The translations under genes were made by a program, and so were the position numbers. A stretch of DNA of 64,000 nt from Chitinophagaceae bacterium (lineage in GTDB: Bacteria; Bacteroidota; Bacteroidia; Chitinophagales; Chitinophagaceae): NCBI GenBank assembly GCA_014879565.1, contig JACSRW010000038.1:1759-65758 (forward strand), written 5' to 3'. Below the pieces are notes generated by a model. That model ran no database searches. It saw nothing but the letters and a program-made list of their open reading frames with translations, and was not told the DNA's origin. Shown here piece by piece: positions 5,483 through 28,519 of the stretch; the first letter of the stretch is position 1, and each line of letters begins with the position of its first letter.

Positions 5483-5740
5483 GTCTCTTCAGGTATTTAA
5501 TTTACTGAACAATACAACAAATTTATGGCCATTTGGATCAGCAGCAACCAAATCCGTCTTTTTGTCATTCCACCGCTACTTTGTTTACAGTTTTTTAACA
5601 GATAAAGAAAATTAAGGCATTCCGATTGAAATTTTAAGTATTTGATTATCAAATATTTGCAAACAAAGAAAGATTGATTTTCAACGGTTTTATACAACCC
5701 AAAACCGGGCTGTTTTTTATACACAAGCCGAAAAATTTAT

Positions 5741-5770
5741 TTTGAAATGTGGGGCATAATTGTAATTTAG
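5741..5770 (+). promoter_or_regulatory. Bacteroidota housekeeping-sigma promoter (candidate sRNA A)
   Basis: TTTG (5741-5744), 18-nt spacer, TAATTTAG (5763-5770, one mismatch to TAnnTTTG). Confidence 0.6.
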
Positions 5771-5772
5771 CA

Positions 5773-5827
5773 ACAGAATTTAATGGGTTAGTAAGTAAGA
5801 GGGCTGGTCGAAAGACCGGCCCTTTTT
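5773..5827 (+). ncRNA. Candidate small RNA A (about 55 nt)
   Basis: Promoter, about 27-nt unstructured segment, then GGGCTGGTC-GAAA-GACCGGCCC hairpin plus TTTTT; the 5' end is inferred. Confidence 0.5.
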
Positions 5828-5960
5828 ACTTTTCATGATCCGTCCGTTTCCGGCACTCCATTTTCTTTTCTTTTACTGCTTTCTATCCCACTTTACTTGT
5901 TTTACTTCTTCTTCTTTTTATTAAAAAGGGCTGCTTTGGCAAAACGATTAATTTTATCGC

Positions 5961-7334
5961 ATGAGCAAAGCAAAAACAAGTTTTTTCTGTCAGCATTGCG
6001 GACATGAAAGTGTGAAATGGGCGGGCCAGTGTCCTTCCTGCGGACAGTGGAACAGTTTTGTGGAAGAGATTATTCACAAGGATACCGGCAAACAGGATAA
6101 CAGCTGGAAGGAATATCACCCGGAAAAACGAAATACAAAAAGTATTGCCCTGCATGCAATCAAAACTCAGGAAGAAAAAAGAGTCAGCACACCCGATGCG
6201 GAACTAAACCGTGTACTGGGTGGCGGCATTGTTCCGGGAAGTCTTGTACTGGTTGCCGGTGAACCCGGTATTGGTAAGTCCACCTTATTTCTGCAGAATG
6301 CGCTATGGCTTAAAGGCGTGAAAACACTTTATATCAGCGGGGAGGAAAGTGAACAGCAGCTGAAAATGCGGGCCGACCGGCTGGGATTGCAGAATGAGGA
6401 TTTTTATCTCTTAACCGAAACCTCAACACAAACCATTTTCCAGGAGATAAAAAAACTGCGGCCGCAACTGGTCATTGTGGATTCGGTACAAACGCTGCAA
6501 ACGGCGCATATTGAATCTTCCCCGGGCAGTGTATCACAGATACGGGAATGTACGGCCGAATTCCAGCGATTTGCCAAGGAAACCAATACCCCGGTATTTC
6601 TGATCGGGCATATCACCAAGGACGGGAGTATTGCCGGACCAAAAATTCTGGAACACATGGTGGACACCGTTCTTCAGTTTGAAGGTGACCGGCATTATGC
6701 CTACCGGATTTTGCGCACCTTGAAAAACCGTTTTGGCAGCACTTCAGAACTGGGCATTTATGAAATGACCGACAGCGGTATGCGGGGCGTGATGAATCCC
6801 AGTGAAATTCTCATCACCCAGAAAGAAGAAAATCTCAGTGGTATAGCTATTGCCGCCACCATTGAAGGCATGCGGCCCCTGCTGATTGAAGTGCAGGCGC
6901 TCGTTACCCAGTCTGTTTACGGTACACCGCAACGTACGGTAAGCGGGTTTGATCTCCGTCGCCTGCAGCTGCTGCTGGCCGTGCTGGAAAAAAGAGGCGG
7001 CTTTCATTTTGGCATGAAAGATGTATTTCTCAATATCGCCGGGGGCTTCAAAGCCGAAGATCCATCCATTGATCTGGCGGTGATTTGTGCCCTGCTCTCC
7101 TCGTATGAAGACTCACCGCTTCCGCAGCGCATTTGTTTTGCCGGAGAAGTCGGACTCAGTGGTGAGATCAGGGCCGTAAACCGGATTGAACAGCGGATCG
7201 CGGAAGCAGAAAAAATGGGATTTGAAAAAATCATTGTGTCCCGTTACAGCCAGAAGAGCCTGAACCGGCCTGCTGCAGGTATTGAAGTGGTGAGTATGGC
7301 CCGTGTGGAAGAGCTGTACCGTTATTTATTCTGA
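5961..7334 (+). CDS. radA: DNA repair protein RadA/Sms
   Basis: CQHC..CPSC zinc finger, GEPGIGKST Walker A, KNRFG motif, Lon-like C-terminus. Confidence 0.98.
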   Translation: MSKAKTSFFCQHCGHESVKWAGQCPSCGQWNSFVEEIIHKDTGKQDNSWKEYHPEKRNTKSIALHAIKTQEEKRVSTPDAELNRVLGGGIVPGSLVLVAGEPGIGKSTLFLQNALWLKGVKTLYISGEESEQQLKMRADRLGLQNEDFYLLTETSTQTIFQEIKKLRPQLVIVDSVQTLQTAHIESSPGSVSQIRECTAEFQRFAKETNTPVFLIGHITKDGSIAGPKILEHMVDTVLQFEGDRHYAYRILRTLKNRFGSTSELGIYEMTDSGMRGVMNPSEILITQKEENLSGIAIAATIEGMRPLLIEVQALVTQSVYGTPQRTVSGFDLRRLQLLLAVLEKRGGFHFGMKDVFLNIAGGFKAEDPSIDLAVICALLSSYEDSPLPQRICFAGEVGLSGEIRAVNRIEQRIAEAEKMGFEKIIVSRYSQKSLNRPAAGIEVVSMARVEELYRYLF

Positions 7335-7371
7335 TACTTCCCTTAGTTTTATAGCCGCAAACCTTATCACT

Positions 7372-8070
7372 ATGTCATTCTTCCACGAGCTGAAGGAGGC
7401 CTTCCTTCACCTGCTCTATCCGCATACCTGTGCCGGTTGCGGAGAGGAGCTTTCTTCCCCGGAAACCGCTTTATGCCTTCGTTGTCTGCATGAATTACCG
7501 GAAACCGGTTTTGCCCCGCTGGCTGATAATCCCGCGGAAAAATTATTCAGGGGACGGCTTCCGTTGTACAGTGCGAGCGCCCAGTATTATTTTACCCGCG
7601 AATCCTTAATTCAAAAACTGATGCACCGGTTTAAATACCAGGGACGGCGCGACCTGGGTTACCAGCTGGGCCGGATCATGGGTAAACAACTGCAGGCATC
7701 GGGCCGCTTCCCAGTTGACGGTCTTATTCCCCTGCCGCTCTTTCCGCAGAAAGAAAAAATGAGGGGATATAACCAGGCCCTCGTATTATGTGAAGGAATG
7801 GCCGTTGCTATGCAGGTACCTGTGTTAGGCGATGCCGTTATCCGCCCGGAGCATACCGAAACACAAACCAGGAAAGGAAGGGTGGAACGCTGGATCAATA
7901 TGGAAGGAAAATTCCTGCTGCAGCAGGTGTCCTCCCTGGAGAACAAACATGTGCTGCTGGTGGATGATGTGGTCACTACCGGGGCTACCCTGGAATCCTG
8001 CGGTAATGAACTCCTGAAAATTCCCGGTCTGCAGCTGAGTCTCGCCACCCTGTGTATTGCCACCCGGTAA
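7372..8070 (+). CDS. comF: ComF family protein (zinc ribbon plus phosphoribosyltransferase)
   Basis: CAGC..CLRC, RGYNQ and LLVDDVVTTGATL motifs; start set at MSFF. Confidence 0.9.
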   Translation: MSFFHELKEAFLHLLYPHTCAGCGEELSSPETALCLRCLHELPETGFAPLADNPAEKLFRGRLPLYSASAQYYFTRESLIQKLMHRFKYQGRRDLGYQLGRIMGKQLQASGRFPVDGLIPLPLFPQKEKMRGYNQALVLCEGMAVAMQVPVLGDAVIRPEHTETQTRKGRVERWINMEGKFLLQQVSSLENKHVLLVDDVVTTGATLESCGNELLKIPGLQLSLATLCIATR

Positions 8071-8101
8071 TTTTCAGCTTTAACCTTTATTTTTGGTTCA
8101 C

Positions 8102-9484
8102 ATGAAATGGTCCGGTTTCTTTATTCCCTTCCTGTTCCTGCTGTTATCCTGCGGAAAGGAACCTTTTATCCGATCCGCGGATGCGCGGCTATCGGTCAGC
8201 GCCGATACCTTAAAGTATGATACAGTATTTGTCAGCGCCGGTTCTGTTTACCAGCGGCTGGTTATAAAGAATGAAAACGACCGGCAATTACGGATCAGTT
8301 CAATTGATCTTTCGGGCGGTACCGGTTCCGTTTTTAAAATGAATGTGGACGGCGTGGCCGGATCCGGCTTCTCAGATATTGTTATCCGGGCCAATGACAG
8401 CCTGTATGTATTTGTTCAGGTAAATGTGGACCCCTCCGCATCAGGCCTGCCCTTTGTGCTGCGCGACAGTATAAGTATCCGTTATAATGGCAATGAGAAA
8501 AAAGTGCAGCTGGAAGCCTGGGGACAAAACGCCCGGTTTTTACGCAATCATATACTGAGCACCGATGAAACCTGGAATAATGACCTGCCTTATGTGATTC
8601 TCGGATCGCTGCAGGTACCGGCCGGCAAAACCCTGACTATTAACAAGGGCAGCCGGATATATATGCATGCCGATGCTCCCCTGGTGATCAATGGCCGCTT
8701 ACGGGTATTGGGGGAAAAGGATACGGCAGACCGGGTGTATTTCCAGGGAGACCGGCTGGATGAGCCTTATAAAAATTATCCTGCATCCTGGCCGGGGATT
8801 TATTTTCTGGATGAGGCAACAGATAATCTCCTGCAATATGCCGTTATCCGCAATGCCTACCAGGCCATCGGTTTGCAGGGACCTTCCGGAAACAGTCAGC
8901 CCAAGCTGCTATTATATGAATCTGTAATTGACAATGCCTGGGATGCGGGTATCATTGCGCTGAACAGCAGCATCACTGCACGAAACTGCCTGATCAGTAA
9001 CTGCGGAAAAAATATTCTCCTGGCTGAAGGGGGACAGTACCAGTTCACCCACTGCACTGTGGTGAGTTATGCCAACCGCTTTGTGGAGCATAAAGAACCC
9101 GTACTCTCCCTTTCCAATGCAGCCGGCAGCGGCAGTGCAGCCCTTGATGCAGTATTCCGGAACTGTATTTTCTGGGGGGATAACGGCCTTGTGAATGATG
9201 AAGTGCAGGTAGAACGGAGCGGCAGTGCGCCGTTTAATGTATTGTTTGATTACAGTCTCTGGAAAGTACAGAACAATCCGACCGGGGTGACCATCAACCA
9301 GGTCATTAATAACCAGCCCCCGCTTTTTGACAGTGTCAATACCATTCAGTCCGTTTACAATTTCCGGCTCAAAGAGGGGTCTCCGGCACTGAACAAGGGC
9401 ACCGTTACCTCCGTAAGCACCGACCTGGACGGAAGGCCCCGCCCGGCAGGTTTGCCCGATTTGGGCTGTTTTGAAAAACAATAG
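8102..9484 (+). CDS. Lipoprotein with right-handed beta-helix and choice-of-anchor-Q-like C-terminus
   Basis: Lipobox LLSC, beta-helix-like repeats, FRLKEGSPA..DLDG..R..PDLGCFE tail. Confidence 0.7.
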   Translation: MKWSGFFIPFLFLLLSCGKEPFIRSADARLSVSADTLKYDTVFVSAGSVYQRLVIKNENDRQLRISSIDLSGGTGSVFKMNVDGVAGSGFSDIVIRANDSLYVFVQVNVDPSASGLPFVLRDSISIRYNGNEKKVQLEAWGQNARFLRNHILSTDETWNNDLPYVILGSLQVPAGKTLTINKGSRIYMHADAPLVINGRLRVLGEKDTADRVYFQGDRLDEPYKNYPASWPGIYFLDEATDNLLQYAVIRNAYQAIGLQGPSGNSQPKLLLYESVIDNAWDAGIIALNSSITARNCLISNCGKNILLAEGGQYQFTHCTVVSYANRFVEHKEPVLSLSNAAGSGSAALDAVFRNCIFWGDNGLVNDEVQVERSGSAPFNVLFDYSLWKVQNNPTGVTINQVINNQPPLFDSVNTIQSVYNFRLKEGSPALNKGTVTSVSTDLDGRPRPAGLPDLGCFEKQ

Positions 9485-9552
9485 GCCTGAATTTTGCCGG
9501 GAAACAAACCGCTACCCGTTAATTTTGCTATCAGGCTATAAACATACTGACC

Positions 9553-10071
9553 ATGAAAACATTATTGCTCAGCTTTCTGCTATCAACCCTGCTTACTACC
9601 GGTTCTGTGTACGATTTTACCGTACCCGGTCTGGAAGGAAAAGATATCCGGTTTGCCGATTTTAAAGGCAAAAAGATCCTGGTGGTAAACACCGCCTCCA
9701 AATGCGGACTTACCCCGCAATATGAAGGGCTGGAAAAACTCTACCAGCAATACAAAGGCAAACTGGTCATCATTGGTTTTCCTGCCAATAATTTTGCCGG
9801 TCAGGAACCCGGCAGCAATGAAGAGATCGGCGAGTTTTGTAAAAAGAACTACGGGGTCAGTTTTCCGATGGCGGAAAAAATATCTGTAAAAGGAGAGGAC
9901 ACCCATGCGCTTTACAAATACCTGAAAGCGCAGGCCGCTGCCAAAGGGATGGCCGATCCGGTAACCTGGAACTTCGGCAAATTCCTGATCAATGAAAAAG
10001 GAGAACTGATAGCCACCTTCTCCCCCCGTACCGCGCCGATGAGCGAGGAAATCCTGAAATACCTCAACTAA
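9553..10071 (+). CDS. Glutathione peroxidase (Cys type, exported)
   Basis: VNTASKCGLTPQY, FPANNF and WNFGKFL motifs; signal peptide. Confidence 0.95.
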   Translation: MKTLLLSFLLSTLLTTGSVYDFTVPGLEGKDIRFADFKGKKILVVNTASKCGLTPQYEGLEKLYQQYKGKLVIIGFPANNFAGQEPGSNEEIGEFCKKNYGVSFPMAEKISVKGEDTHALYKYLKAQAAAKGMADPVTWNFGKFLINEKGELIATFSPRTAPMSEEILKYLN

Positions 10072-10088
10072 AAATTTTTTATCCCGGA

Positions 10089-10123
10089 GGACTACCTGCC
10101 CGACGGGCAGGTAGTCCTTTTTT
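10089..10123 (+). terminator. Terminator whose stem is a REP-like palindrome
   Basis: GGACTACCTGCCCG-A-CGGGCAGGTAGTCC followed by TTTTTT. Confidence 0.8.
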
Positions 10124-10152
10124 ATTGCCAATTAGGGTTATTTTCGCAGCCC

Positions 10153-11352
10153 ATGTCATTCGCGGATATCATCGGTCAGCAGGCGGTAAAAAAACAATTG
10201 GTTGAACTGGTACAGCATAACCGGCTCAGTCATGCCCTGTTATTTCTGGGAAAAGAAGGCTGTGGCGCTCTGCCCCTGGCGCTGGCTTTTGCGCAGTATG
10301 TGGTATGTGAGAAAGCCAATCCCCGGCCGGCAGCAGCCGGTCCTTCCCTTTTCGGAGAAGAGATCCCTGCAGAAAAAATTGCGGCGGCTGATGCCTGCGG
10401 GGTTTGTCCGGCCTGCCTGAAGGCACAGCAACTGGTGCATCCCGATATTCATTACTCCTATCCCACCGTTACCAAAAAACCCGGCGAGAAACCCATTGCT
10501 ACGGATTTTATTACAGAGTGGCGGGAATTTATAAAACGGAATCCGTACGGCAATCTCTTTGACTGGATTGAGATGATCAAGGAAAAAGAAAACAGCCAGG
10601 GTAAGATTACCGCGCGGGAATGTGACGAGATCATCAAAAAACTCAGCCTGAAAAGTTTTGAAAGTGAATACAAGGTACTCGTGATGTGGATGCCGGAGGA
10701 GATGGACAAAGAGGGAAACAAATTGCTGAAAATAATTGAAGAACCACCGGCCAATACCCTGTTTATCCTCGTTACGGAAAATGAAGAGCTGGTTTTGCCC
10801 ACCATTGTCAGTCGTTGCCAGCTGATTAAAGTTCCCGCCCTGGATACCGCTGAAATAGCCGAAGCGCTGCAAACAAGAAATCATACCGATGCCGCTATTG
10901 CCCGGCAGGTAGCCGGATTAAGTGAGGGCAATTACCGCGAAGCCCTGCAATTGGTGCAGCATGCGGATGAAGATTGGCTGGTACAGGTTAGGGAATGGCT
11001 CAACGCCCTGATGAAAGGGGGGCCAAAGGCGGAAGTAGGCTGGGTGGAGGAAATGAGCAGGATGGGCCGGGAAAAACAGAAACAGTTTCTCCGGTATTTT
11101 ATCCACCTGATCCAGCAGGCCATCCATTACAGGCTGCTGGGAGAACAGGCCCTTATCGGGGATAAAGAAAAGGAGTTTGCCGTAAAACTGAACAAATACA
11201 CCGGGATTGAACAGCAGCAGGCCATCAGTGAAGAATTGGATAAAGCCAGTTATTTTATTGAGCGGAATGCCCATGGGAAAATCCTCTTCCACGCCCTGAC
11301 CCTTAAACTAAAGCACATTATTCAGGATAAGATTGTATTTTTGATGAATTGA
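10153..11352 (+). CDS. holB: DNA polymerase III subunit delta'
   Basis: HALLFLG, CGVCPAC, HPDIH, NKLLKIIEEPP and LPTIVSRCQ motifs. Confidence 0.93.
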   Translation: MSFADIIGQQAVKKQLVELVQHNRLSHALLFLGKEGCGALPLALAFAQYVVCEKANPRPAAAGPSLFGEEIPAEKIAAADACGVCPACLKAQQLVHPDIHYSYPTVTKKPGEKPIATDFITEWREFIKRNPYGNLFDWIEMIKEKENSQGKITARECDEIIKKLSLKSFESEYKVLVMWMPEEMDKEGNKLLKIIEEPPANTLFILVTENEELVLPTIVSRCQLIKVPALDTAEIAEALQTRNHTDAAIARQVAGLSEGNYREALQLVQHADEDWLVQVREWLNALMKGGPKAEVGWVEEMSRMGREKQKQFLRYFIHLIQQAIHYRLLGEQALIGDKEKEFAVKLNKYTGIEQQQAISEELDKASYFIERNAHGKILFHALTLKLKHIIQDKIVFLMN

Positions 11353-11552
11353 TATCGGAAAGAGGTGACCGAACCGGGAGAAATGGACATAAGTCCTTGA
11401 ATTTCAAATTGTATTTATTTTCTTCTTCAATATAGTTCGCCGGGTAGTGTAACCCGCTTTTTTTGAAATAACTATATCTGACAGTTTGTAATTCAGTACG
11501 GCCCCGTCTTCGTGTTTTTCCCCGTCCGTTTTCATAACCAGACAGTTAAACT

Positions 11553-12959
11553 ATGGGATGTACAGGTTGCAGCACAGCTAACGGCACCAAACCAAACGGG
11601 TGTAAAAGCAACGGCGGATGCAGTTCCGGCGGATGCAACCGTATGAATGCCTATGACTGGCTGCAGAATCTCCCCATTTCGGATTATGACAGTGCCTGCC
11701 GCGTGATTGAAGTCAGCTTCAGCCAGGGCACCCGCAAAGATTTTTTCCGCAATCCCAATCTCCAGCCTTTTGAGAAAGGAGACCTGATTGCCGTTGAAGG
11801 TGTCAGCGGATTTGATCTCGGGGAAGTCTCCCTTACCGGAGAGATTGTACGCCTCCAGATGAAAAAACGGGGTGTAAAGGAAGACAATCCCGAGATGAAA
11901 AAAGTGTTGCGGAAAGCAACGGACAGAGATATTGAAATCTGGAAACAGAATAAAGCCCGTGAACCGGAGGCCGTGATCCGCAGCCGGGCCATTGCCAAGC
12001 AACTTAAACTGGATATGAAGATCAGCCAGGTTGAGATGCAGGCGGATGGCCGGAAAGCCACTTTCTTCTATATCGCTGACGGCCGGGTGGATTTCCGCGA
12101 ACTGATAAAAGTATACGCCTCAGAATTCCGGGTAAAAGTGGAAATGCGTCAGATCGGCGCCCGCCAGGAAGCCGGTAAAGTCGGCGGAATCGGCAGTTGC
12201 GGCCGCGAGCTTTGCTGCAGTACCTGGCTCACTGATTTTAAATCAGTCAATACCGCAGCGGCCCGTTACCAGAATCTTTCGATTAATCAAACCAAACTCA
12301 GCGGACAGTGCGGACGGCTTAAATGCTGTCTGAACTATGAGCTGGATACCTACCTGGATGCCCTCCAGCATTTCCCGGAGCATTGTGATACCCTGCAGGT
12401 AGCCAAAGGCAATGCCTTCCTTATTAAAAAGGATATTTTCAAAAACCTGATGTGGTACACCCTGCCGGACAGTACCAAACAATATCCGCTCTCAATTGAT
12501 CGTGTTATAAAAATCAAAACCCTCAACAGACAGGGGGTTATACCCGATGAACTGGAGCCGGTGGAAGTAACCAGTTCAAAACCCAAGGAAGCCGAACCGG
12601 AAGCGGTAGAACTGGTGGGCCAGATCAGTCTGCGTACCCTGGAAAAGGCGGAGAAGAAAAAGAAACAGCAACGCCAGCAACAGCAGCGTCAGCAAAGAAG
12701 TCCGCAACAGGGACAAAAAGGGCAGCAGCAGGGCCAGCAGCAGCAAGGCCAACAGGCGCAGAGAGGAGGACCCCAAAGACCGGGCAATGCTCCGCAACAA
12801 AGAAGCGGTCAAGCCGGCCAGGGACAAAAAGGGCAGCAGCAACGCAGCGGTCAGTCAGGCCAGGGTAACCGGAATCCCCAGCAGCGTCCCGGACAGGGAG
12901 GCAGAGGCCCGCAAAGACCCAATCCTCCTAAAGAGCAGGGCAAAGAAAATCAGCAGTAA
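11553..12959 (+). CDS. ricT: PSP1/RicT (YaaT) family protein with Gln/Gly-rich C-terminal tail
   Basis: FYIADGRVDFRELIK, GGIGSCGRELCC and GQCGRLKCCLNYE motifs; follows holB. Confidence 0.92.
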   Translation: MGCTGCSTANGTKPNGCKSNGGCSSGGCNRMNAYDWLQNLPISDYDSACRVIEVSFSQGTRKDFFRNPNLQPFEKGDLIAVEGVSGFDLGEVSLTGEIVRLQMKKRGVKEDNPEMKKVLRKATDRDIEIWKQNKAREPEAVIRSRAIAKQLKLDMKISQVEMQADGRKATFFYIADGRVDFRELIKVYASEFRVKVEMRQIGARQEAGKVGGIGSCGRELCCSTWLTDFKSVNTAAARYQNLSINQTKLSGQCGRLKCCLNYELDTYLDALQHFPEHCDTLQVAKGNAFLIKKDIFKNLMWYTLPDSTKQYPLSIDRVIKIKTLNRQGVIPDELEPVEVTSSKPKEAEPEAVELVGQISLRTLEKAEKKKKQQRQQQQRQQRSPQQGQKGQQQGQQQQGQQAQRGGPQRPGNAPQQRSGQAGQGQKGQQQRSGQSGQGNRNPQQRPGQGGRGPQRPNPPKEQGKENQQ

Positions 12960-12970
12960 TTATTTCCGCA

Positions 12971-15889: not shown

Positions 15890-16006
15890 GTGTTGATTTG
15901 TTAGTATGAGGGAATTCGGTTTTTAAAATTAGTTGTTTTAGGGCAAAGCGACAGGCCGGCGGTCTTAAAAATGAAATGGTTATTTTTGCCGGCTAAACCG
16001 GATTTT

Positions 16007-17836: not shown

Positions 17837-17866
17837 TTGAAAAGTTAACAGGTTAGCAAGGGGTTG

Positions 17867-19261: not shown

Positions 19262-19293
19262 TTTGACTTTTAAATTTTGACTTTAACTTTTAC
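19261..19293. repeat. T-rich heptamer tract
   Basis: TTTTGAC TTTTAAA TTTTGAC TTTAAC TTTTAC. Confidence 0.55.
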
Positions 19294-19303
19294 TGTTCCG
19301 GTC

Positions 19304-20350: not shown

Positions 20351-20392
20351 TATATCCCATTTAACTGGTCAATAAGAGTAGTTCCGGGTCGT

Positions 20393-20441
20393 CTCCCCAC
20401 TCCTGCCTCCCGTCTCCTGTCTCCGTACTCCCGCCTCCTAA
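20393..20441. repeat. Heptamer tract (CTCCCGT-like, 7 units)
   Basis: CTCCCCA CTCCTGC CTCCCGT CTCCTGT CTCCGTA CTCCCGC CTCCTAA. Confidence 0.85.
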
Positions 20442-21574
20442 CTTCTCTCCTGTGCCCTTAACCATCTTTCCGGTATCTCATTGCTGCTGGCCAATAAATA
20501 ATCCTTATAGCTGCAGGCGATGAATTTTTTATCGGGCAGCTGCATCCACCAGCGGCCTGTTTTTTTGCTTTGCAGAAAGATGGTATCTACTTCGGCGAAT
20601 GCCATATGGTATTCGTTGAAGGAGTCTTTTTCATCCAGGTTTGCTTCCTTTCGGCCGCGGCTCCGGCCATCGAGCAGGTACCAGAGCATGTGGCTGATCT
20701 GGCGGGCGGTCATTTCATCGCGGTCGTGGTTGGGATTGTACCCATAGATACCCACGGTGTTTACATTCGGGCTCATCCCTGCATATTGCATCAGTACGCA
20801 GGCTTCCTCGCCGTTCAGTCCGTTGGGCGAGACGGTACCGGCCGGCGCAAAGGAATGGGCAAGGGCGGTAATATCAAAACTGAAGAGATGGCTGTTCCGG
20901 ATCACGGGTTCCATCTCGTCTATATTTTCCTTTACGCTACCGACCCGGTAACAGTCGAACCGGAGTTTGTCAAGCGTTTCAAGCATTTTGGGATGAACGA
21001 AATAGCTCTGGAAAGCGATATGGTTATAATGCCGGAGAAAATTGGGTTCCCCGGTAAGCATTTCCATCAGGAAATTTTCATGGCGGAAGGGGGCGTCCAT
21101 ATTCAGGTCAACCAGGGCATCCACGCAACTGGCTTCGATGCTTCTTTTTCCGCCTGCATAAGCGTAGTACTGCGGCAGGGTGAGATCATGCGAGCCGCCC
21201 AGGATCACCACTGTCTTTCCTTCCCCGATCAGGGCTTCGGTGACTGTTTTGAGTGCGGCCCAGGTATCGGTAAACTGCGCGCCGGTCCGGATATTCCCCA
21301 GGTCAGCTATCCGGATATCCTGGTGCCAGTAATAGAGGCTGTAAAAATGACGGCGGATAATATCCGGTCCGTTGGTCTGACCGGGCAGCCGGCCGCTTCC
21401 TCTTTGTTCGCCGCAGCCGATCAATACCAATTGTACTTCGTCCAGGTCGGGAAATTCATCGGTCCATACCGATATCACTTTTCCCATCTGTCCTTCCTTA
21501 TAGCCTTCATCATGCGAGATTTCAGCCAGGCTGACAGGGGTTAAAAAGTCGGAGATGCTGAGGGGGTCTGACAT
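20438..21574 (-). CDS. Arginase/formimidoylglutamase-fold protein
   Basis: DLGN and LGGSHDLT motifs with Bacteroidota-type C-terminal extension; metal-binding motifs are degenerate. Confidence 0.85.
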   Translation of the reverse strand: MSDPLSISDFLTPVSLAEISHDEGYKEGQMGKVISVWTDEFPDLDEVQLVLIGCGEQRGSGRLPGQTNGPDIIRRHFYSLYYWHQDIRIADLGNIRTGAQFTDTWAALKTVTEALIGEGKTVVILGGSHDLTLPQYYAYAGGKRSIEASCVDALVDLNMDAPFRHENFLMEMLTGEPNFLRHYNHIAFQSYFVHPKMLETLDKLRFDCYRVGSVKENIDEMEPVIRNSHLFSFDITALAHSFAPAGTVSPNGLNGEEACVLMQYAGMSPNVNTVGIYGYNPNHDRDEMTARQISHMLWYLLDGRSRGRKEANLDEKDSFNEYHMAFAEVDTIFLQSKKTGRWWMQLPDKKFIACSYKDYLLASSNEIPERWLRAQERS

Positions 21575-21587
21575 AGATGCAAGTTAG

Positions 21588-21629
21588 GGGAAAGTGGGGA
21601 ATGGAAAGTGGGGAATGGAGAGTGGGGAG
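21588..21629. repeat. Purine-rich heptamer tract upstream of the four-helix-bundle gene
   Basis: GGGAAAG TGGGGAA TGGAAAG TGGGGAA TGGAGAG TGGGGAG. Confidence 0.8.
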
Positions 21630-21710
21630 TGATACAAACTTTTTTGAGCAGGGAGAGTGGGGTGAAAAAAAAGTGTATGAAGGATTTGTTTATGTTTCAA
21701 AAAAAATTCT

Positions 21711-22067
21711 ATGCTAAAATCGGCACATAAAACACTTGATGTATACAAGCTTTCATTAGCACTGGTAAAGATGATCTATGAGACTACCCGAAGGTTTCCA
21801 AAAGAGGAACAGTATTTACTGGTTATCCAACTACGCAGAGCAGCCATTTCAGTTTGCAGTAACATTGCGGAGGGTTCCTCAAGAATTTCAGGCAATGAGA
21901 AAAAGCGGTTTTATGAAATCGCCCGTTCCTCCGTTGCAGAAATTGATACGCAAATTGAAATTGCCATCAATCTGAATTTTCTGGACTTCCGGGAAATAAA
22001 ACCTTTGGAAGAAAATATTGAATCAATATTCAGAATGCTGTCAAAAATGATCAGAAATCTAAGTTAA
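21711..22067 (+). CDS. Four-helix-bundle protein (23S rRNA IVS/Avd-like family)
   Basis: LDVYK..FPKEEQY.L..QLRRAAISVCSNIAEG..RFYEIARSSVAEIDTQ; lower GC than neighbours. Confidence 0.92.
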   Translation: MLKSAHKTLDVYKLSLALVKMIYETTRRFPKEEQYLLVIQLRRAAISVCSNIAEGSSRISGNEKKRFYEIARSSVAEIDTQIEIAINLNFLDFREIKPLEENIESIFRMLSKMIRNLS

Positions 22068-22179
22068 GCACTGTTGTGCCGGGCAGCCATTCTCTTTTCT
22101 TTCCTCCTTTTCCATGCCCCAATCCTCACTTTACCTTTCCCGGCTTCTCCTTCCCTGCTCTATTCCGTATATTTGCCCC

Positions 22180-23208
22180 ATGGAACAACTGCTGCACCAG
22201 ATTGAAGTTTATAAGAAGGAAATGAGCGCTTTTAGTGCCTCAGATGCCAAAGAAGTGGAGGAATTCCGTATCAAATGGCTGGGGACCAAAGGAGTGGTAA
22301 AGACTATTATGGGGGAAATGAAGAATGTAGCCCCGGAAAGGAAAAAAGAAGCCGGCCAGTTGCTGAATGAATTCAAACAATTTGCCGAACTCAGGTATGA
22401 TGAACTGAAAGCGTCCGCTTCCGGCAGTACCCAGACCGGATTCAGTATGGATATCAGTCTGCCGGGCGATCCCCTGCCACTCGGTTCCCGTCACCCGGTT
22501 ACGCTGATGCGGAACCGGATTGTTTCCATTTTCCAGCGCCTGGGATTTGCTGTAGCGGAGGGCCCGGAAATAGAAGATGACTGGCATAATTTCGGCGCCC
22601 TGAACCTGCCCCCCCATCACCCGGCCCGGGACATGCAGGATACTTTTTACATACAGCAGAACCCAGATTGGGTGCTGCGTACGCATACATCCAGCGTGCA
22701 GATCCGCGAAATGGAAAAGGGAAAACTGCCTATCCGCATGCTGATGCCGGGCAGGGTTTACCGCAATGAAACCGTGAGCGCCCGCAGCCATTGCTTTTTC
22801 CACCAGGTGGAAGGATTATATATTGATGAAAATGTATCATTCGCAGATCTCAAACAGACCCTTTACTTTTTTGTGAAGGAAATGTATGGGAAGGATGTAA
22901 AAGTCCGGTTCCGGCCTTCTTATTTTCCGTTTACAGAACCCAGTGCCGAAATGGATGTAACATGCTTTATCTGCGGGGGAAGTGGTTGTAATATCTGCAA
23001 AAAAACAGGCTGGGTGGAAATACTCGGTTGCGGAATGGTTCATCCCAATGTACTTTCCAATTGCGGAATTGATCCTAATAAATATACAGGCTTTGCCTTT
23101 GGTATGGGCATTGAAAGACCCGCCATGCTGAAATACGGTGTGAATGATCTTCGACTGTTCAGTGAGAATGATGTGCGGTTTTTGAAACAGTTTACTTCAG
23201 CTATCTGA
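22180..23208 (+). CDS. pheS: Phenylalanine--tRNA ligase alpha subunit
   Basis: HPARDMQDTF, LRTHTS, FHQVEG, RFRPSYFPFTEPS and GFAFGMGIER motifs. Confidence 0.98.
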   Translation: MEQLLHQIEVYKKEMSAFSASDAKEVEEFRIKWLGTKGVVKTIMGEMKNVAPERKKEAGQLLNEFKQFAELRYDELKASASGSTQTGFSMDISLPGDPLPLGSRHPVTLMRNRIVSIFQRLGFAVAEGPEIEDDWHNFGALNLPPHHPARDMQDTFYIQQNPDWVLRTHTSSVQIREMEKGKLPIRMLMPGRVYRNETVSARSHCFFHQVEGLYIDENVSFADLKQTLYFFVKEMYGKDVKVRFRPSYFPFTEPSAEMDVTCFICGGSGCNICKKTGWVEILGCGMVHPNVLSNCGIDPNKYTGFAFGMGIERPAMLKYGVNDLRLFSENDVRFLKQFTSAI

Positions 23209-23259
23209 AGGTTGAAGGATTGAGAAGCTTCTATCTAAACGATATTTGCTTAGGAGGCC

Positions 23260-23305
23260 CCACTCACCACTCACTACCTGCCTGCCGGCAGGCAAGCTCA
23301 CCACT
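23260..23305. repeat. CACCACT heptamers interrupted by the REP-like palindrome TGCCTGCCGGCAGGCA (23279-23294)
   Basis: Read directly from the sequence. Confidence 0.8.
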
Positions 23306-24186
23306 TACCTGAACAGCAACTTCACCCCTGCTTCGCCCGTGGTATAATCAAAATCCTGCACTCCCCGGCGGAGGCCGAAAAGCAGGTGCATCTTTTTCAT
23401 TTTCCATTCAAAGAGGGTGCGGATCAGCACGGGTTTGTCGCCCTGTTTTTCGAGGTAACCGAGATAACCGGACAGATCGGTGCGCAGCCGGAATGTTTTT
23501 TTGTCCCAGTCAAACCCGGCGCCGAAGAGGAAGGCGTCATCCTGCCTGAATTCATCCGACTGGATCTGCCAGACCAGGAAACCCGCCATAGCGGTCAGCC
23601 GGAGGGTTTTTTCCTTATTCAGTGTTTTTCCTCCGTTGACTGCGAAATGATACCCGGGTCCGTCACTGTAACGGGCAGCCCCGTAAGCCGTTCCCGAAGG
23701 AAAACGGTAACCTACCTGGAGGATCAGGTCTATTGCCGGTGACCATTTTTTCAACAGCCGGAAATTCGTGAGCAGGGAGAGATCACCCGCGGCTTTTTTT
23801 TCATTGAAGTACTCGTAATAAACATGCCGTTTTTCTTTCACCGCGGTACTCATGGTAAAACGCTCATAGGGAATCCAGGAGAGTTCCACATCCACCAGGT
23901 CTTTGGCAATGCCCAGGTGCCCGGAAACCGCCAGGTTCTGTGTATTGTCTCCCGGTGAAAAATGAAAGGCACCGGTTACCCGCAGGTAATTGCTGTTGTC
24001 TATTTTTCCGTTTCCCAGTCCGGGTACCGGCAGTGAATTGGGCCCCTGGAAAGCCGGGAGGGTGATCATATAACGGGACCAGTGGCTGACTCCGTCCCAG
24101 CCAACGACCTGCTCCCATCGTTCGCGGGTTTGGGCAGAGAGACTACAGGAAATAAGCAGAAAAGCGGCAGGCAGTAAGAATCGCAT
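23305..24186 (-). CDS. Hypothetical exported protein, probable outer-membrane beta-barrel
   Basis: Signal peptide, alternating aromatic strands, C-terminal GVKLLF; no family recognised. Confidence 0.6.
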   Translation of the reverse strand: MRFLLPAAFLLISCSLSAQTRERWEQVVGWDGVSHWSRYMITLPAFQGPNSLPVPGLGNGKIDNSNYLRVTGAFHFSPGDNTQNLAVSGHLGIAKDLVDVELSWIPYERFTMSTAVKEKRHVYYEYFNEKKAAGDLSLLTNFRLLKKWSPAIDLILQVGYRFPSGTAYGAARYSDGPGYHFAVNGGKTLNKEKTLRLTAMAGFLVWQIQSDEFRQDDAFLFGAGFDWDKKTFRLRTDLSGYLGYLEKQGDKPVLIRTLFEWKMKKMHLLFGLRRGVQDFDYTTGEAGVKLLFR

Positions 24187-24265
24187 AAACCAGTATTGGG
24201 ATAAAAATAGGATTTAAAACAGAAACGACAGTCCTGTTCACGTCCGCTTCTTATCTTTATCGGCA

Positions 24266-25120
24266 ATGGCCACTTTCATCAATAGTATTTGTGTCTGCGG
24301 GGCGGGTACCATGGGCAGCGGTATTGCACAAAGCGCCGCGCAGGCCGGCTTTGCCACGATTCTCTATGAGCTGAATTCCGCTGTACTGGAAAAAGCAAGG
24401 GCCGGTATCGTGCAGAACCTGCAGCGGCTGGCGGAAAAAGGTAAAATCAGCCACGAAGAAGCAGGAGCCATTCAAAACAGGATTCGCTTTACGGATGATA
24501 TCCAGACCTGCCAGGCCGATATTTTTATTGAAGCCATTGTGGAAAAAACGGAAGCCAAGACGAGCCTTTTCAACCAGCTGGCAGAACTGAATCACAGCGA
24601 TACCATTTTCGCCACGAATACATCCTCCCTGCCGGTAACTGCCATTGCCAAAACGGTTCAGCAACCGGGCCGCGTGATCGGAATGCATTTTTTTAACCCG
24701 GCCACGCTGATGAAACTGGTAGAGGTAGTGGAAACTCCCTTTACCCGGTCTGCTGTTACGGAAACGGTGATGGAACTGGCCCGGCAAATGGGTAAGGTAC
24801 CGGTGCTCTGCCGGGATGCGCCGGGTTTTATTGTCAACCGTGTGGCCCGGCCCTACTATATTGAATCACTCCGGCTGCTGGAAAATAACCAGACGAGCCC
24901 GGAACAACTTGACCGTTTGCTGGAAGCAACCGGGTTCCGTATGGGGCCTTTCCGGCTGATGGACCTGATCGGGAATGATATCAATTATGCTGTCAGCACT
25001 TCTGTGTATGAACAACTGCAGCATCCTGAAAGACTGAAGCCTTCTTATATCCAGGCAGCCAAAGTACAGGAAGGGAAACTCGGTAAAAAAACCGGTGAGG
25101 GATATTACCAATACGAATAA
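24266..25120 (+). CDS. 3-hydroxyacyl/3-hydroxybutyryl-CoA dehydrogenase
   Basis: GAGTMGSG, ATNTSS, GMHFFNP, PGFIVNR and MGPF motifs. Confidence 0.95.
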   Translation: MATFINSICVCGAGTMGSGIAQSAAQAGFATILYELNSAVLEKARAGIVQNLQRLAEKGKISHEEAGAIQNRIRFTDDIQTCQADIFIEAIVEKTEAKTSLFNQLAELNHSDTIFATNTSSLPVTAIAKTVQQPGRVIGMHFFNPATLMKLVEVVETPFTRSAVTETVMELARQMGKVPVLCRDAPGFIVNRVARPYYIESLRLLENNQTSPEQLDRLLEATGFRMGPFRLMDLIGNDINYAVSTSVYEQLQHPERLKPSYIQAAKVQEGKLGKKTGEGYYQYE

Positions 25121-25172
25121 CAACAAGCGCTATCTTCGCACATTGTTTTTTTCATCTTATTAATCTTTCAAT

Positions 25173-26180
25173 TTGTCATCTACAATCCTTGTTACCGGCG
25201 GCACGGGTTTTCTCGGTTCCTATATACTGAAGGAACTGGTGGAAAAAGGGTACAAGGTCAGGGCCCTGTACCGGAATAAAAAGGCACTTCCGTGGATACC
25301 CGATGCTATTACCCACGCTGTGGAATGGGTGGAAGGAGATATACTGGATGTGGTGTCGCTGGAAGATGCGATGGGAGGTATAGATGCCGTGATCCATTCG
25401 GCGGCAGTTGTTTCCTTTGCCCCGGAAGACAGAGCAAGTATGTACCAGATGAATGTGGAAGGCACGGCCAATGTGGTGAATATGGCCCTGGAGAAAGAGG
25501 TAAAACGGATGGTGCATATCAGTTCCGTAGCCGCACTGGGACGCAACCTGGCCGGCGGGATGGTAAACGAAGACAAAAAATGGGAAGACTCCAAAGTAAA
25601 TACACATTATGCCCGGAGTAAATTTAAAGCCGAACTGCAGGTATGGCGGGGTATCAGTGAGGGATTGGATGCAGTTATCCTGAATCCGTCTACCATTCTT
25701 GGTTATGGCGACTGGCACCAGAGCAGCTGCGCCATCTTCCGCCAGGTGTATACAGGTTTCCGCTGGTATACTGATGGCGTAAATGGTTTTGTGGATGTGG
25801 AAGATGTGGCCAGAGCAGCGGTCATTCTCCTGGAAAGCGGAATCAGTGAACAGCGTTTTATTGTCAATGCAGACAACTGGTCGTTCCGGCAATTACAGGA
25901 AACAATTGCAGCAGGTTTCGGCAAAAAAGGACCAGATAAGGAAGCCGGCCCTTTTATGCTGGGACTGGCCTGGCGCCTGGAAAAAATTAAAACTTTCTTC
26001 ACCGGCCGTAAAGGCCTGCTCAGCCGCGAAAGCGCCCGGGTGGCCAGAAGCCGCACCCTGTTTTCCGGCGAAAAACTGCTGCAGGCATTACCGGGTTTTT
26101 CCTTCACCCCCCTTGAACAGACCATCAAAAAAGCCTGTGAAAAATATATTGGCACAGTTCATGCCGGTAAGAAGCCATAA
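25173..26180 (+). CDS. NAD-dependent epimerase/dehydratase
   Basis: TGGTGFLG, HSAA and YARSK motifs; TTG start. Confidence 0.9.
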   Translation: MSSTILVTGGTGFLGSYILKELVEKGYKVRALYRNKKALPWIPDAITHAVEWVEGDILDVVSLEDAMGGIDAVIHSAAVVSFAPEDRASMYQMNVEGTANVVNMALEKEVKRMVHISSVAALGRNLAGGMVNEDKKWEDSKVNTHYARSKFKAELQVWRGISEGLDAVILNPSTILGYGDWHQSSCAIFRQVYTGFRWYTDGVNGFVDVEDVARAAVILLESGISEQRFIVNADNWSFRQLQETIAAGFGKKGPDKEAGPFMLGLAWRLEKIKTFFTGRKGLLSRESARVARSRTLFSGEKLLQALPGFSFTPLEQTIKKACEKYIGTVHAGKKP

Positions 26181-26190
26181 TCAGTCCGCT

Positions 26191-27267
26191 ATGGAATTAC
26201 GCCGCCTTTCCCTGTTTGTTTTCTTTTCCTTTTTGTCTTTAGGACTGTCTGCACAATTTGTCATCAGCGGACAAATACTGGACTCAGCCACCCGGGAGCC
26301 GTTGACCAAGGCTTCTGTATTTTGTCAGAACACCACCCTGGGTACCCTTACCGGAAAGGACGGCTCATTTTCCCTGACGCTTAAATCGGGCGGGTATGAT
26401 CTTATCTTCAGTTATACCGGCTACCATACCCAGACCATCCGGGTGAATGAACAGCAGCAACTGGAAGTATTGCTTTCCAAAAAGGAAAACAATATGGAGG
26501 AGGTGGTCTTGCGGAGCAGTTTTGAAGTGGCCGACGGCTGGGAGAAATACGGAGATTTTTTTCTGAAACAGTTTATCGGCAGTACTCCCAATGCCCGGCA
26601 GTGTGAACTGTTAAACCCGGATGTACTGAAGTTTTATTTCTACAAACGTACCAACCGGCTCAAAGTTATGGCCACTGATGCCCTGCTCGTCAATAACCAG
26701 GCCCTGGGTTACCAGTTGCGTTACCAGCTGGATTCATTTGTATATCACTACAACAGTTCCCTGAGTTCGTACCGGGGTTATTGCCTTTTTATGGAGATGG
26801 AGGGGGGTGACAGCCTGCAGGTTGGCTGGGAGGATGCCCGCCGGGAAGCCTACAAAGGATCAAGGCTGCATTTCATGCACAGTTATTATGACAGTACATT
26901 AAGCCAGGAAGGATGGATCGTATCTCTGCTGGACAGCGCGGACAATAAAAAATTCAATGCCCTGCCCGATCCCTATGATACGCTGTATTACCTGGGTAAA
27001 GACGACAGTACGCGGCTGATTGAAATCTGGTTTCCCCGGAAAATCAGTGTAACCTACAAGGGCCGGAGCCCGGAGCCTGAATACCTGAAGGCGATGAACC
27101 TGCCGAAATCTGTACCGTATCCTGTATCGTATGTGGAATTAAGGGATGCTGTTGCGATCCGGGAGAATGGTTATTTCTTTGAGCAGGCCGACTGGATCAA
27201 CCAGGGTTACTGGAGCTGGAAAAACCTGGCGGATCTGCTGCCGTATGATTATGTACCGGAAGAATAA
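26191..27267 (+). CDS. Exported protein with CarboxypepD_reg-like N-terminal domain
   Basis: Signal peptide from MELRR, GQILDSAT.EPL..A and GSFSL motifs; the real start is downstream of the track start. Confidence 0.8.
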   Translation: MELRRLSLFVFFSFLSLGLSAQFVISGQILDSATREPLTKASVFCQNTTLGTLTGKDGSFSLTLKSGGYDLIFSYTGYHTQTIRVNEQQQLEVLLSKKENNMEEVVLRSSFEVADGWEKYGDFFLKQFIGSTPNARQCELLNPDVLKFYFYKRTNRLKVMATDALLVNNQALGYQLRYQLDSFVYHYNSSLSSYRGYCLFMEMEGGDSLQVGWEDARREAYKGSRLHFMHSYYDSTLSQEGWIVSLLDSADNKKFNALPDPYDTLYYLGKDDSTRLIEIWFPRKISVTYKGRSPEPEYLKAMNLPKSVPYPVSYVELRDAVAIRENGYFFEQADWINQGYWSWKNLADLLPYDYVPEE

Positions 27268-27269
27268 TA

Positions 27270-28229
27270 TCAGCTGGTTTTTTCTCCTTTCCCCATTACT
27301 TTTTCCCAGAGCTGGGGAATTCTTTTCACCCAGACCAGTTCTCTTCTTTTTTCCCGGGCATCCTGTACCGGTGTGCCAAAATAGGTTGTATCACCCGCGA
27401 TGGTGGATGCCACACCGCTTTGCGCGAGAACAACCGCATTCTTACCAATAGTGAGTGTTTTGCTGACCCCCACCTGCCCCCAGAGAATTACATTATCCTC
27501 AATGTATACGGCCCCTGCAATAGCCACCTGCGCGGCAAACAGACAGTTTTTTCCCACCACGGTATCGTGCCCGATATGTACAAGGTTATCCAGTTTAGTG
27601 CCGGCACCAATAACGGTATCATGGGTTACCCCCCTGTCAATGGTGCAGTTGGCGCCGATCTCTACAGCATTTTCCAGGATCACCCGTCCACAGCTTTCCA
27701 TCCGTTTATAATGAACAGCCCGGTTGGTTTTTTTATTGTAGTAAAAAGCATCGCTCCCGATCACTGAGCCGGCCTGTATCACTACATCATCACCGATTAC
27801 ACAATGATCCAGGATACTGACATTCGGATGGATCACACAGTTTTTACCGATGTGTACCCGGTTGCCCACAAAAGCCCCGGGCATAATCACGGAGCCTTCT
27901 CCGATCACTGCGGTATCGCTGATCATTTTCGGTGAGGGATTAAATGGCCGGTAATGGCGCACAATCTTCAGATAGGCTTCAAAAGGTTCGTCCACGACCA
28001 GCAGCGCTTTGCCTTCCGGTACATCCGTCCTGGCATTGATGATAATAAAACTGGCCGCCGAGCGGATGCAGGTATCATAGTACTTCGGATGATCCACGAA
28101 GACGAGGTCACCGGTTTCCACCTTATGAATTTCATTGATACCCGTGGCAAGTCCTTCGCTGTTACCTGTTAACTCCGCTCCTATCAGTGCAGCGATAGTT
28201 GTTACCGGTACCGGTTGTTCAAAGCGCAT
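27270..28229 (-). CDS. lpxD: UDP-3-O-acylglucosamine N-acyltransferase (LpxD-like)
   Basis: Hexapeptide repeats, EIGANCTIDRG and DNLVHIGHD motifs. Confidence 0.88.
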   Translation of the reverse strand: MRFEQPVPVTTIAALIGAELTGNSEGLATGINEIHKVETGDLVFVDHPKYYDTCIRSAASFIIINARTDVPEGKALLVVDEPFEAYLKIVRHYRPFNPSPKMISDTAVIGEGSVIMPGAFVGNRVHIGKNCVIHPNVSILDHCVIGDDVVIQAGSVIGSDAFYYNKKTNRAVHYKRMESCGRVILENAVEIGANCTIDRGVTHDTVIGAGTKLDNLVHIGHDTVVGKNCLFAAQVAIAGAVYIEDNVILWGQVGVSKTLTIGKNAVVLAQSGVASTIAGDTTYFGTPVQDAREKRRELVWVKRIPQLWEKVMGKGEKTS

Positions 28230-28411
28230 AATAAAAATTTACGCAAAGGTAGGAAGTAAAGACTGGCAGCTTATCATGCTCCCTGCTGTAAAGAATTCTG
28301 ATAAACGTTAGCAGATGATGTTGCTGAAGAATTGCAGGAATGCGCACTGAATACAATCCGGTTTATCCACAGCATTATTTAAAATGTTAATAAAATATTT
28401 TGGAAATATTT

Positions 28412-28441
28412 TTTGGTTCAACAAAATTATTTTTAATATTG
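28412..28441 (+). promoter_or_regulatory. Bacteroidota promoter (candidate sRNA B)
   Basis: TTTG (28412-28415), 18-nt spacer, TAATATTG (28434-28441); same geometry as the promoter at 5741. Confidence 0.6.
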
Positions 28442-28442
28442 C

Positions 28443-28519
28443 ACAGGGAATTTACGTTCCCTGTACTTACTAACCCATCCATATATTATCCCTTCGTTTT
28501 CAACGGAGGGATTTTTTTT
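28443..28519 (+). ncRNA. Candidate small RNA B (about 77 nt)
   Basis: Hairpin ACAGGGAA/TTCCCTGT, 23-nt linker, terminator ATCCCTTCGTT-TTC-AACGGAGGGAT plus T run. Confidence 0.55.

Follow-up and report, generated by a model that had tools for sequence, protein, structure and literature searches.

The stretch of DNA analyzed here, referred to as the window, comprises 64,000 nucleotides (nt) of a Chitinophagaceae bacterium (GenBank assembly GCA_014879565.1, contig JACSRW010000038.1, positions 1,759 to 65,758 of the forward strand). Two of its intergenic regions, one upstream of radA and the other upstream of yicC, each contain a short unit with a promoter and an intrinsic terminator, and these units are predicted to specify the small RNAs (sRNAs) A and B. 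Within unit A, ATGGGTTAGTAAGTA (5783-5797, plus strand) is the exact reverse complement of TACTTACTAACCCAT (28464-28478) within unit B, just as a preliminary description of the window had reported. These 15-nt sequences are called here the A-type and B-type words, and the positions of the A-type word are numbered a1-a15. On balance, we consider it probable that A and B are real, separately transcribed plus-strand sRNAs, with pairing via their words as part of their conserved role, and that they belong to a small RNA-RNA network.

The two units and their neighbours

RNA A is a predicted plus-strand RNA of ~53 nt. Its promoter (5741-5770), as read from the sequence, consists of a -33 TTTG (5741-5744), an 18-nt spacer, and the -7 sequence TAATTTAG (5763-5770); the -33/-7 consensus of Bacteroidetes promoters is well established. 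In an alignment of 20 species of the genus, the promoter block TATTTTGAA-ATGTGGGGCATAATTGTAAYTTAG is kept, while a divergent clade has a perfect TAcaTTTG box instead. The 5' segment of the RNA, GAATTTAATGGGTTAGTAAGTAA (5776-5798), contains the A-type word and is unpaired in both minimum free energy (MFE) and ensemble folds. It is followed by a GC-rich intrinsic terminator (5797-5827) composed of the stem GGGCTGGTC/GACCGGCCC, a GAAA loop, and a T-run at 5823-5827. A terminator scan of the unit gives a call on the plus strand only, and the compensatory and G·U changes seen in the stem among relatives are workable only on that strand. For example, GGGTCAATC with GATTGGCCC forms a G·U pair that would be an A/C mismatch if the minus strand were transcribed.

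The gene directly downstream of A is radA (5961-7334, plus strand), encoding the DNA repair protein RadA/Sms, with the Pfam domains AAA_25, KaiC-type ATPase, ChlI, and Lon_C and an N-terminal zinc ribbon. In each of the 30 genera examined, radA likewise follows A directly and in the same orientation. A -7-like box, TAATTTTA (5949-5963), ends ~5 nt before the radA ATG. Use of this box would give a radA message with little or no leader, in which case A would not serve as the leader of radA. Upstream of the -33 element of A, at ~5715-5727, there is a conserved block, AAGTTATNCACA; a different block, TAAAATGTTAATAAAAT, precedes the -33 element of B (28380-28396) and is invariant in the genus. These blocks may be transcription-factor sites that set the timing of A and B.

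RNA B, with a predicted length of ~77 nt, also lies on the plus strand. Its promoter (28412-28441), again read from the sequence, has a -33 TTTG (28412-28415), an 18-nt spacer, and a -7 box, TAATATTG (28434-28441), that is invariant in the genus and in divergent genera. The MFE fold begins with a 5' hairpin, CAGGGAA-loop-TTCCCTG (28443-28463). Genus alignments reveal compensatory changes at the base of its stem (CAGGG/CCCTG, TTGGG/CCCAG, and CCGGG/CCCGG) and a G·U pair in one species. Next comes the single-stranded seed GTACTTACTAACCCATCC (28463-28480), unpaired in the folds, which places the B-type word in a linker of ~25 nt between the 5' hairpin and the terminator. The terminator (28488-28519) has an 11-bp stem followed by eight T residues and is called on the plus strand only. 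Its stem also co-varies, with U·G pairs that are valid solely on the plus strand (CCCTTCG with CGGAGGG, for instance).

Directly downstream of B is a gene for a YicC-family endoribonuclease (28612-29487, plus strand; Pfam YicC-like_N and YicC-like_C), while lpxD (27270-28229, minus strand; Pfam LpxD and Hexapep) diverges from the unit. B is directly upstream of yicC, on the same strand, in 28 of 30 genera, and lpxD is divergent in 28 of 30. The sequence 3' of the B terminator is unconserved and holds no conserved minus-strand promoter; between each of the two terminators and its downstream gene, conservation is similarly absent. In a divergent clade, B is without the usual 5' hairpin, and an AAGGAT...ATCCTT stem holds the seed in a loop of ~15 nt (loci L136, L138-L140, L142-L146, L148, L171, L172, L175, L176, L179, L180, and L183). 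In the same clade, A begins GTGAATTTAATGGG after a perfect TACATTTG -7 box.

Much of the architecture proposed in the preliminary description is borne out by this work. Both units have TTTG-N18 promoter boxes and plus-strand terminator calls, and both words are in unpaired regions, with per-base unpaired probabilities of ~0.8-0.99. A shared start of the two RNAs (ACAG..AATTTA), which had also been proposed, did not hold up: in B it is not conserved across relatives, and AATTTA is the loop of the B 5' hairpin.

Complementary words, their conservation, and their copies

By itself, the raw 15-nt match between A and B is not significant; its significance comes from context and conservation. At up to two mismatches, these two are the only sites for the 15-mer in the window, and shuffled sequences have an expectation of 0.07. 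However, exact inverted matches of 15 nt or more between distant sites occur about nine more times in the window, and windows from a first-order Markov model contain 3.1 of them on average and 13 at most. Because of these additional matches, the earlier chance argument needs tempering: the rarity of the raw match does not stand, whereas the location in two short linkers and the conservation of the words do. The other matches include 20407-20424/42175-42201, 15241/60133, 14241/40604, 8357/14006, and 25453/33318, and one of the other matches in the window involves heptamer-type repeats of CTCCCGTCTCC. Within the 3.43-Mb genome, there is a single further close copy of the 15-mer (one mismatch), on contig C14 after recA, and two matches with two mismatches, which is the chance frequency. 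With only three close copies, the idea that the 15-mer is a high-copy repeat, which the preliminary description had raised, is rejected.

The distribution of the two units was determined by BLAST and with covariance models built from genus alignments (R1 for B and R2 for A), using one genome from each of 150 Chitinophagaceae genera as the family sample. In BLAST searches of 24 species of the genus, A and B were each detected, at 80-93% identity, in every species or almost every one. Model R1 finds B in 137 of the 150 genera, and model R2 finds A in 130; of the 13 genomes that are missing B, nine are missing A as well. Across 95 genomes from 25 other families of the order, there are weak matches in only three. 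In the GTDB species-genome collection, at least 120 contigs contain an exact match to the 18-mer GTACTTACTAACCCATCC. Among the matches listed, the contig titles are almost all Chitinophagaceae, Chitinophagales, or generic Bacteroidota, with one Sphingomonadales, and the named genera are Sediminibacterium, Chitinophaga, Puia, Flavitalea, Paraflavitalea, Agriterribacter, Ferruginibacter, Segetibacter, Hanamia, Flavipsychrobacter, and Danxiaibacter.

The complementary segments are the best-conserved part of each RNA. The B seed is essentially invariant family-wide (alignment A3), and GAATTTAATGGGTTAGTAAGTAA of RNA A is nearly invariant in 50 A loci from ~50 genera (alignment A4). In alignments of the genus, conservation covers the promoter boxes, the 15-mers, and a small number of adjacent bases, while the hairpins vary by compensatory change. 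Between genera, the terminators are wholly different while the words remain nearly invariant. Thus, the conservation check suggested by the preliminary description, once run across the family, reveals units present in 130-137 of 150 genera, with words that are kept next to hairpins that turn over. A search of the whole window against Rfam 15 at gathering thresholds gave no match. At E values up to 10, the three loci gave only chance-level matches (the best at 24.5 bits versus a cut-off of 50), none of them centred on the words, and full-text literature searches turned up no paper describing RNA A or B. A and B are therefore two RNA families new to Rfam and to the literature searched.

Base pairing between A and B is well supported in silico. 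Cofolding of the two RNAs yields a ddG of -21.4 kcal/mol, compared with -7.5 +/- 2.4 kcal/mol for 300 shuffled linkers. In the 43 genomes with both RNAs, 25 cells of the alignment of words depart from the canonical pair: 15 are G·U, 2 are Watson-Crick compensated, and 8 are mismatches. All 15 of the G·U wobbles arise from A-to-G or C-to-U changes on the plus strands. When the 28 distinct seed pairs are considered, 98.1% of cells pair, a level reached by none of 500 shuffles, and sliding the A and B words to other registers lowers pairing to only 24-41%. Two pairs are changed on both sides, which was equalled in 8 of 500 shuffles. In three genera, the B partner of a4 has changed from C to A. 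In one of these (G050), A reads ATGtGTTAG, so that the a4 pair changes from G-C to U-A, and in G106, the a1 pair changes from A-U to G-C. Together, these changes provide compensatory support for the A-B pairing that is real but thin.

The third close copy of the word in this genome (G000), ATGGGTTAaTAAGTA at C14:8728-8742, is located 19 nt after the recA stop codon and directly before the recA terminator. In 23 relatives from the genus, the recA 3' untranslated region (UTR) has diverged in both length and sequence and the terminators are unrelated; nevertheless, (G/A)ATGGGTTAG... is found immediately 5' of the terminator in nearly all. Among 31 genera sampled, ~20 have at least 9-10 nt complementary to the B seed just before the recA terminator, with a spacing of 0-3 nt between word and terminator. 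The portion of the word that is kept varies: many species of the genus retain a1-a9, and G072, G075, and G059 retain a6-a15. These shifting sub-windows suggest the behaviour of an sRNA target site, unlike that of a protein site or of a fixed mini-open reading frame (ORF).

The recA sites also follow changes in B. For G079, the sequences are TTACTAACaCATTTT in B and AAAATGtGTTAGTAA in the recA UTR; they are perfectly complementary over 15 nt, new flanking A/T pairs included. In the recA site of G106, a1 is G and a4 is T, both of which match the CACAC of B. Each of the three lineages with a changed B has the compensating base in at least one A-type partner. The motif was not found in the recA downstream region of G050 or G082, and a variant B to match the variant recA site of G057 was not found either. 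Other hosts of the A-type module are occasional: a gene in G114, which we take to be bacilliredoxin-like, and a membrane-protein gene in G084. Two further features were observed downstream of recA. At L053 (the recA 3' UTR of G002), an inserted GC hairpin splits the word (ATGGG-CCTGCCTTCCGGCAGGCAG-GTTAATAAGTAA), and both halves are kept. In addition, many genomes have a perfect palindrome, ATGTTTAAACAT within TTCAATGTTTAAACATCGTATATTTG, that abuts a TAnnTTTG -7 box (examples are L056, L058, L062-L069, and L228-L230); it is absent at this position in G000. This palindrome looks like an operator for the gene after recA.

The B-type word, too, is found in an mRNA tail. Secondary matches of the B model lead to a conserved ORF of 51 amino acids (aa), located in G000 at C19:21552-21400 on the minus strand (MKNRYFVHHHESARIYRHYYKPSVNFLRLLKAVLSVILTGSSPAGNAYYRR), which has a promoter-like region of its own. 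The protein has the pattern MKN..HHE.A+IY..YYKPS.N..RL.K.VL.V..SGSSPA.. and a moderately hydrophobic C-terminal half; homologues are encoded at L396-L401 and L269-L273. Pfam and homology searches with this protein revealed no Pfam family and no annotated or named homologue. In the 3' UTR of its gene, a B-type word sits ~10 nt before the terminator (TTTTTACTAACCCCT in G000, GTTACTTACTAACCCCC in G172), and 10-14 nt are complementary to A. Similar tails are present in G057, G132, G130, G119, G174, G081, G083, G086, and G053, which brings the genera with this arrangement to at least 10 besides G000. Thus, both words occur not only in a free-standing RNA but also in the tail of an mRNA, and the distance to the terminator is characteristic of the word (0-3 nt after the A-type and ~10 nt after the B-type). 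When G000 was scanned for more modules of a word plus a terminator, only these four exceeded the reversed-word controls. The preliminary claim that the two RNAs base-pair is thus upheld in silico by cofolding, invariance, and co-variation, while the implied closed, two-member pair is not, given the copies in the recA and small-ORF 3' UTRs.

One match beyond the family has a ACTAACCCATCC word and a terminator after a putatively peroxiredoxin-like gene. At L404 (G254, from a different family of the order), ACTAACCCATCCTTATAAAAAG and a terminator directly follow a stop codon (1525-1580); from its C-terminus (..EVCPANWVSGKEGMKDTHDGVANYLAKH) alone, the gene is presumably peroxiredoxin (AhpC)-like. 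The L404 module could be a remote relative of the B-type 3' UTR module or a chance match.

Other candidate partners have fared less well. In G000, ACTTACTAACCCAC (C1:~81957-81984; L004 1496-1525, minus strand) lies 4 nt before the ATG of a HisKA_3-type histidine kinase gene, in an operon with a LuxR-type response regulator, and 13 nt are complementary to the A word. The kinase gene was found in 10 of 30 genus genomes. As an A target, this 5' UTR is a weak lead that was set aside, since only ACTAACC[C/T/A]ACC is partly kept and matches with two mismatches occur at the level of chance. Seed pairing with transfer RNA or transfer-messenger RNA was likewise at chance level; ribosomal RNA is not assembled in this genome.

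Several observations weigh against pairing between A and B or with recA. In G079 and G106, a4 of A is A, which leaves an uncompensated A·A mismatch with B, and there are other uncompensated mismatches in G064, G082, and G102. Kinship inflates the shuffle statistics for seed pairing. Because the words are so highly conserved, independent compensatory events are few, consisting of the two A-B double changes plus the recA cases, possibly within one clade. About one third of the 31 sampled genera have no recA motif. Finally, the invariant GAATTTA of A and the CC(A/T) flank of B lie outside the duplex and are not explained by pairing.

Competing explanations

An alternative idea is that the 15-mer is a double-stranded DNA site, recognized in either orientation by a single DNA-binding protein at four loci (upstream of radA and yicC, downstream of recA and the small ORF), with the shared changes in G050, G079, and G106 reflecting a shift in specificity. 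Identity on opposite strands is indistinguishable from complementarity, which counts against the pairing of A and B as well. Position 4 has become T or A at all sites in the three variant genera, and a relaxation of G to W fits this slightly better than pairing does, given the A·A mismatches. Furthermore, the A and B sites lie at about +8 to +36 of conserved promoters, a possible operator position. However, the orientation of the word relative to transcription is fixed within each class, the spacing to the terminator is class-specific (0-3 versus ~10 nt), and a location at the 3' end of a gene, immediately ahead of its terminator, does not resemble that of an operator. Changes at the end of the word keep G·U pairing while breaking the identity of the motif, as in G067, G069, G087, and G092, where A has ...GTAAGTG and the minus strand of B has ...GTAAGCA. 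In addition, the recA sites keep differing sub-windows of the word, and one clade displays the seed within a stem-loop of the RNA. We regard a DNA site as an unlikely explanation.

The A-type word can also be read as a minimal start-stop frame (ATG GGT TAG TAA, Met-Gly-stop-stop) that would load ribosomes on the radA leader and the recA trailer, with B being at most an antisense mask. Within the genus, ATGGGTTAG is exactly the core that is best preserved among the recA copies, and variants keep the arrangement of start-X-stop (GTG AGT TAG, ATG TGT TAG, GTG TTT TAG, and TAG to TAA). The invariant A/U-rich GAATTTA upstream of the ATG, left over by pairing, would also find a place here. Yet the frame is lost while complementarity to B is kept in recA of G072 (GGGGATTAGTAAGTA), recA of G075 (GGGGTTAGTAAGTA), and the A unit of G064 (AGG CGT TAG). 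Nor would a mini-ORF account for the conservation of a9-a15, for a B-type word in another 3' UTR, or for co-variation with B. This possibility, too, seems improbable to us.

A third proposal is that A and B are unrelated cis leaders or attenuators of radA and yicC whose complementarity has no function. The strict synteny of the units (all 30 genera examined have A ahead of radA, and 28 of 30 have B ahead of yicC) would be consistent with this, as would the frequency of exact 15-nt inverted matches in the window. But the words stay complementary across ~130 genera, A and B are lost together in nine genomes, and paired changes occur at the same positions. Moreover, extra copies are present in 3' UTRs unrelated to radA or yicC, and the sequence between terminator and gene is unconserved. 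It is improbable that the units are only cis leaders.

The preliminary description also suggested that B could be a paralogue of A read from the minus strand. This is attractive in that the word would then precede the CAGGGAA..TTCCCTG hairpin as it precedes one in A and in the recA tail, but it is rejected as very improbable. There is neither a T-run after that hairpin nor a conserved minus-strand promoter in the unconserved right flank, and the G·U pairs of the hairpin and terminator would become A/C mismatches. On the plus strand, by contrast, the promoter does not vary, all terminator calls are found there, and the layout persists in the clade without the hairpin.

A working model and its relation to known systems

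The preferred reading, that A and B are paired plus-strand sRNAs, leads to a model in which the word of B would pair with the recA message at the A-type copy 0-3 nt before its terminator, and the word of A matches the 3' UTR of the gene for the 51-aa protein. In the most likely working version, the 3' end of recA mRNA is a post-transcriptional target of B, which alters the stability of the message or the processing of its 3' end. Such an effect is favoured over an effect on translation because all of the mRNA sites are in 3' UTRs against terminators. A, which has the layout of seed plus terminator seen in the recA tail, would act as a decoy or sponge that competes for B, which is equivalent to saying that the two RNAs would titrate each other. 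Since both are invariant hubs, mutual titration is the neutral description of their roles. We infer that A and B are transcribed, with indirect support from the conserved promoters, the plus-strand terminators, and the RNA-type co-variation of the hairpins; how regulation runs, what happens to recA, and whether radA or yicC is linked to the circuit are likewise inferences. In the duplex, the 5' hairpin of B would abut the start of the partner's terminator stem, and one may speculate that the resulting stacked junction serves a double-strand- or stem-loop-specific ribonuclease. The support in silico for a circuit of A, B, and the recA tail consists of conserved plus-strand units, accessible complementary words, co-variation, and restriction to the family.

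Chaperones may play little part in this pairing. To our knowledge, Bacteroidota is a phylum without Hfq. Neither Hfq (PF17209) nor ProQ was found in this 99.5% complete genome, which encodes four RRM_1 proteins. This is consistent with duplexes that are long and largely chaperone-independent.

Pairs of sRNAs and sponges are familiar from enterobacteria, where they include GcvB-SroC, ChiX with the chbBC spacer, RyhB/RybB with the 3'ETS(leuZ), and AgvB/AsxR. Like these, A and B lie at distant loci and have extended complementarity in the seed of one partner; A mimics an mRNA site (the recA 3' UTR), and mutual titration is expected. Unlike the enterobacterial pairs, in which a conserved sRNA faces a fast-evolving sponge, A and B would both be invariant, family-wide hubs in an Hfq-less phylum, and each word is mirrored in a terminator-adjacent mRNA 3' UTR. 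We know of no case in which both complementary partners exist as a stand-alone sRNA plus a 3' UTR copy.

Regulation at the 3' UTR of a message also has precedents. Spot 42 acts on hilD and GadY on gadX, and the antitoxin RNAs of Bacillus type I systems pair with the 3' ends of toxin mRNAs. As in these cases, the recA site is after the stop codon and near the terminator, which suggests control of stability or processing over control of translation initiation. In contrast to them, the recA site would be paired by a trans-encoded RNA, abuts the terminator stem (0-3 nt), and is also found free-standing as a small RNA. Other sRNAs, such as CpxQ, SroC, and NarS, are themselves derived from 3' UTRs. 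The recA and small-ORF tails share the architecture of the free-standing A (recA tail) and of the 3' half of B (small-ORF tail) and, by analogy, could be released as sRNA paralogues. In type I toxin-antitoxin systems, an antisense RNA binds the mRNA of a small, hydrophobic peptide that is toxic; the 51-aa ORF, with its moderately hydrophobic C-terminal half and a 3' UTR complementary to A, may bear comparison with such a system.

The gene downstream of B offers another comparison. Endoribonucleases of the YicC family degrade sRNAs (E. coli YicC acts on RyhB and C. difficile CD25890 on SQ528), cleaving small stem-loop RNAs and being blocked when the sRNA is paired (PMC12255296; doi 10.64898/2026.05.21.726821; doi 10.64898/2026.03.25.714237). 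Like these substrates, B would be a small stem-loop RNA, the type that YicC enzymes prefer, and it is encoded directly upstream of yicC in most genera (28/30); unlike in those cases, its relation to yicC is one of gene linkage. Finally, Bacteroidetes also have dCas12f-sigmaE systems for RNA-guided transcription. Their guide RNAs come from loci next to cas12f/sigmaE, with the guide itself forming the 3' end of a stem-loop scaffold, and the targets are found upstream of the activated genes (PMC13472631). B resembles such guides in being a small Bacteroidetes RNA with ~15 nt that match distant genomic sites. However, its seed is internal and followed by a terminator, its neighbours are lpxD and yicC in 28 of 30 genera, and its matches precede terminators, and so the idea that B is a dCas12f-sigmaE guide RNA is rejected.

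These comparisons allow a bolder, more speculative picture, which we consider doubtful. Two hub RNAs, each mirrored by a terminator-adjacent 3' UTR (recA for one, the 51-aa gene for the other), would form a family-wide, Hfq-independent toggle in which the balance of free B versus A sets the stability of recA mRNA. Such a toggle would tie recombination capacity, through recA and the location of A at radA, to sRNA turnover by the adjacent YicC.

A base-pairing sRNA together with a decoy and a 3' UTR site is a known kind of system; what is new here is the families themselves, in a phylum without described circuits of this type. We are aware of no described sRNA-sponge pair and no sRNA control of recA in Bacteroidota, and the literature searched likewise gave none. 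Post-transcriptional regulation in this phylum is poorly mapped, and the analysis supplies two RNA families with covariance models (A in 130 genera, B in 137), a 15-nt interaction between them, and recA as a co-varying candidate partner. If the model is true, the Chitinophagaceae would provide an example of an sRNA acting on a core DNA-repair message at its 3' end, and of two sRNAs that titrate each other in a phylum that lacks Hfq.

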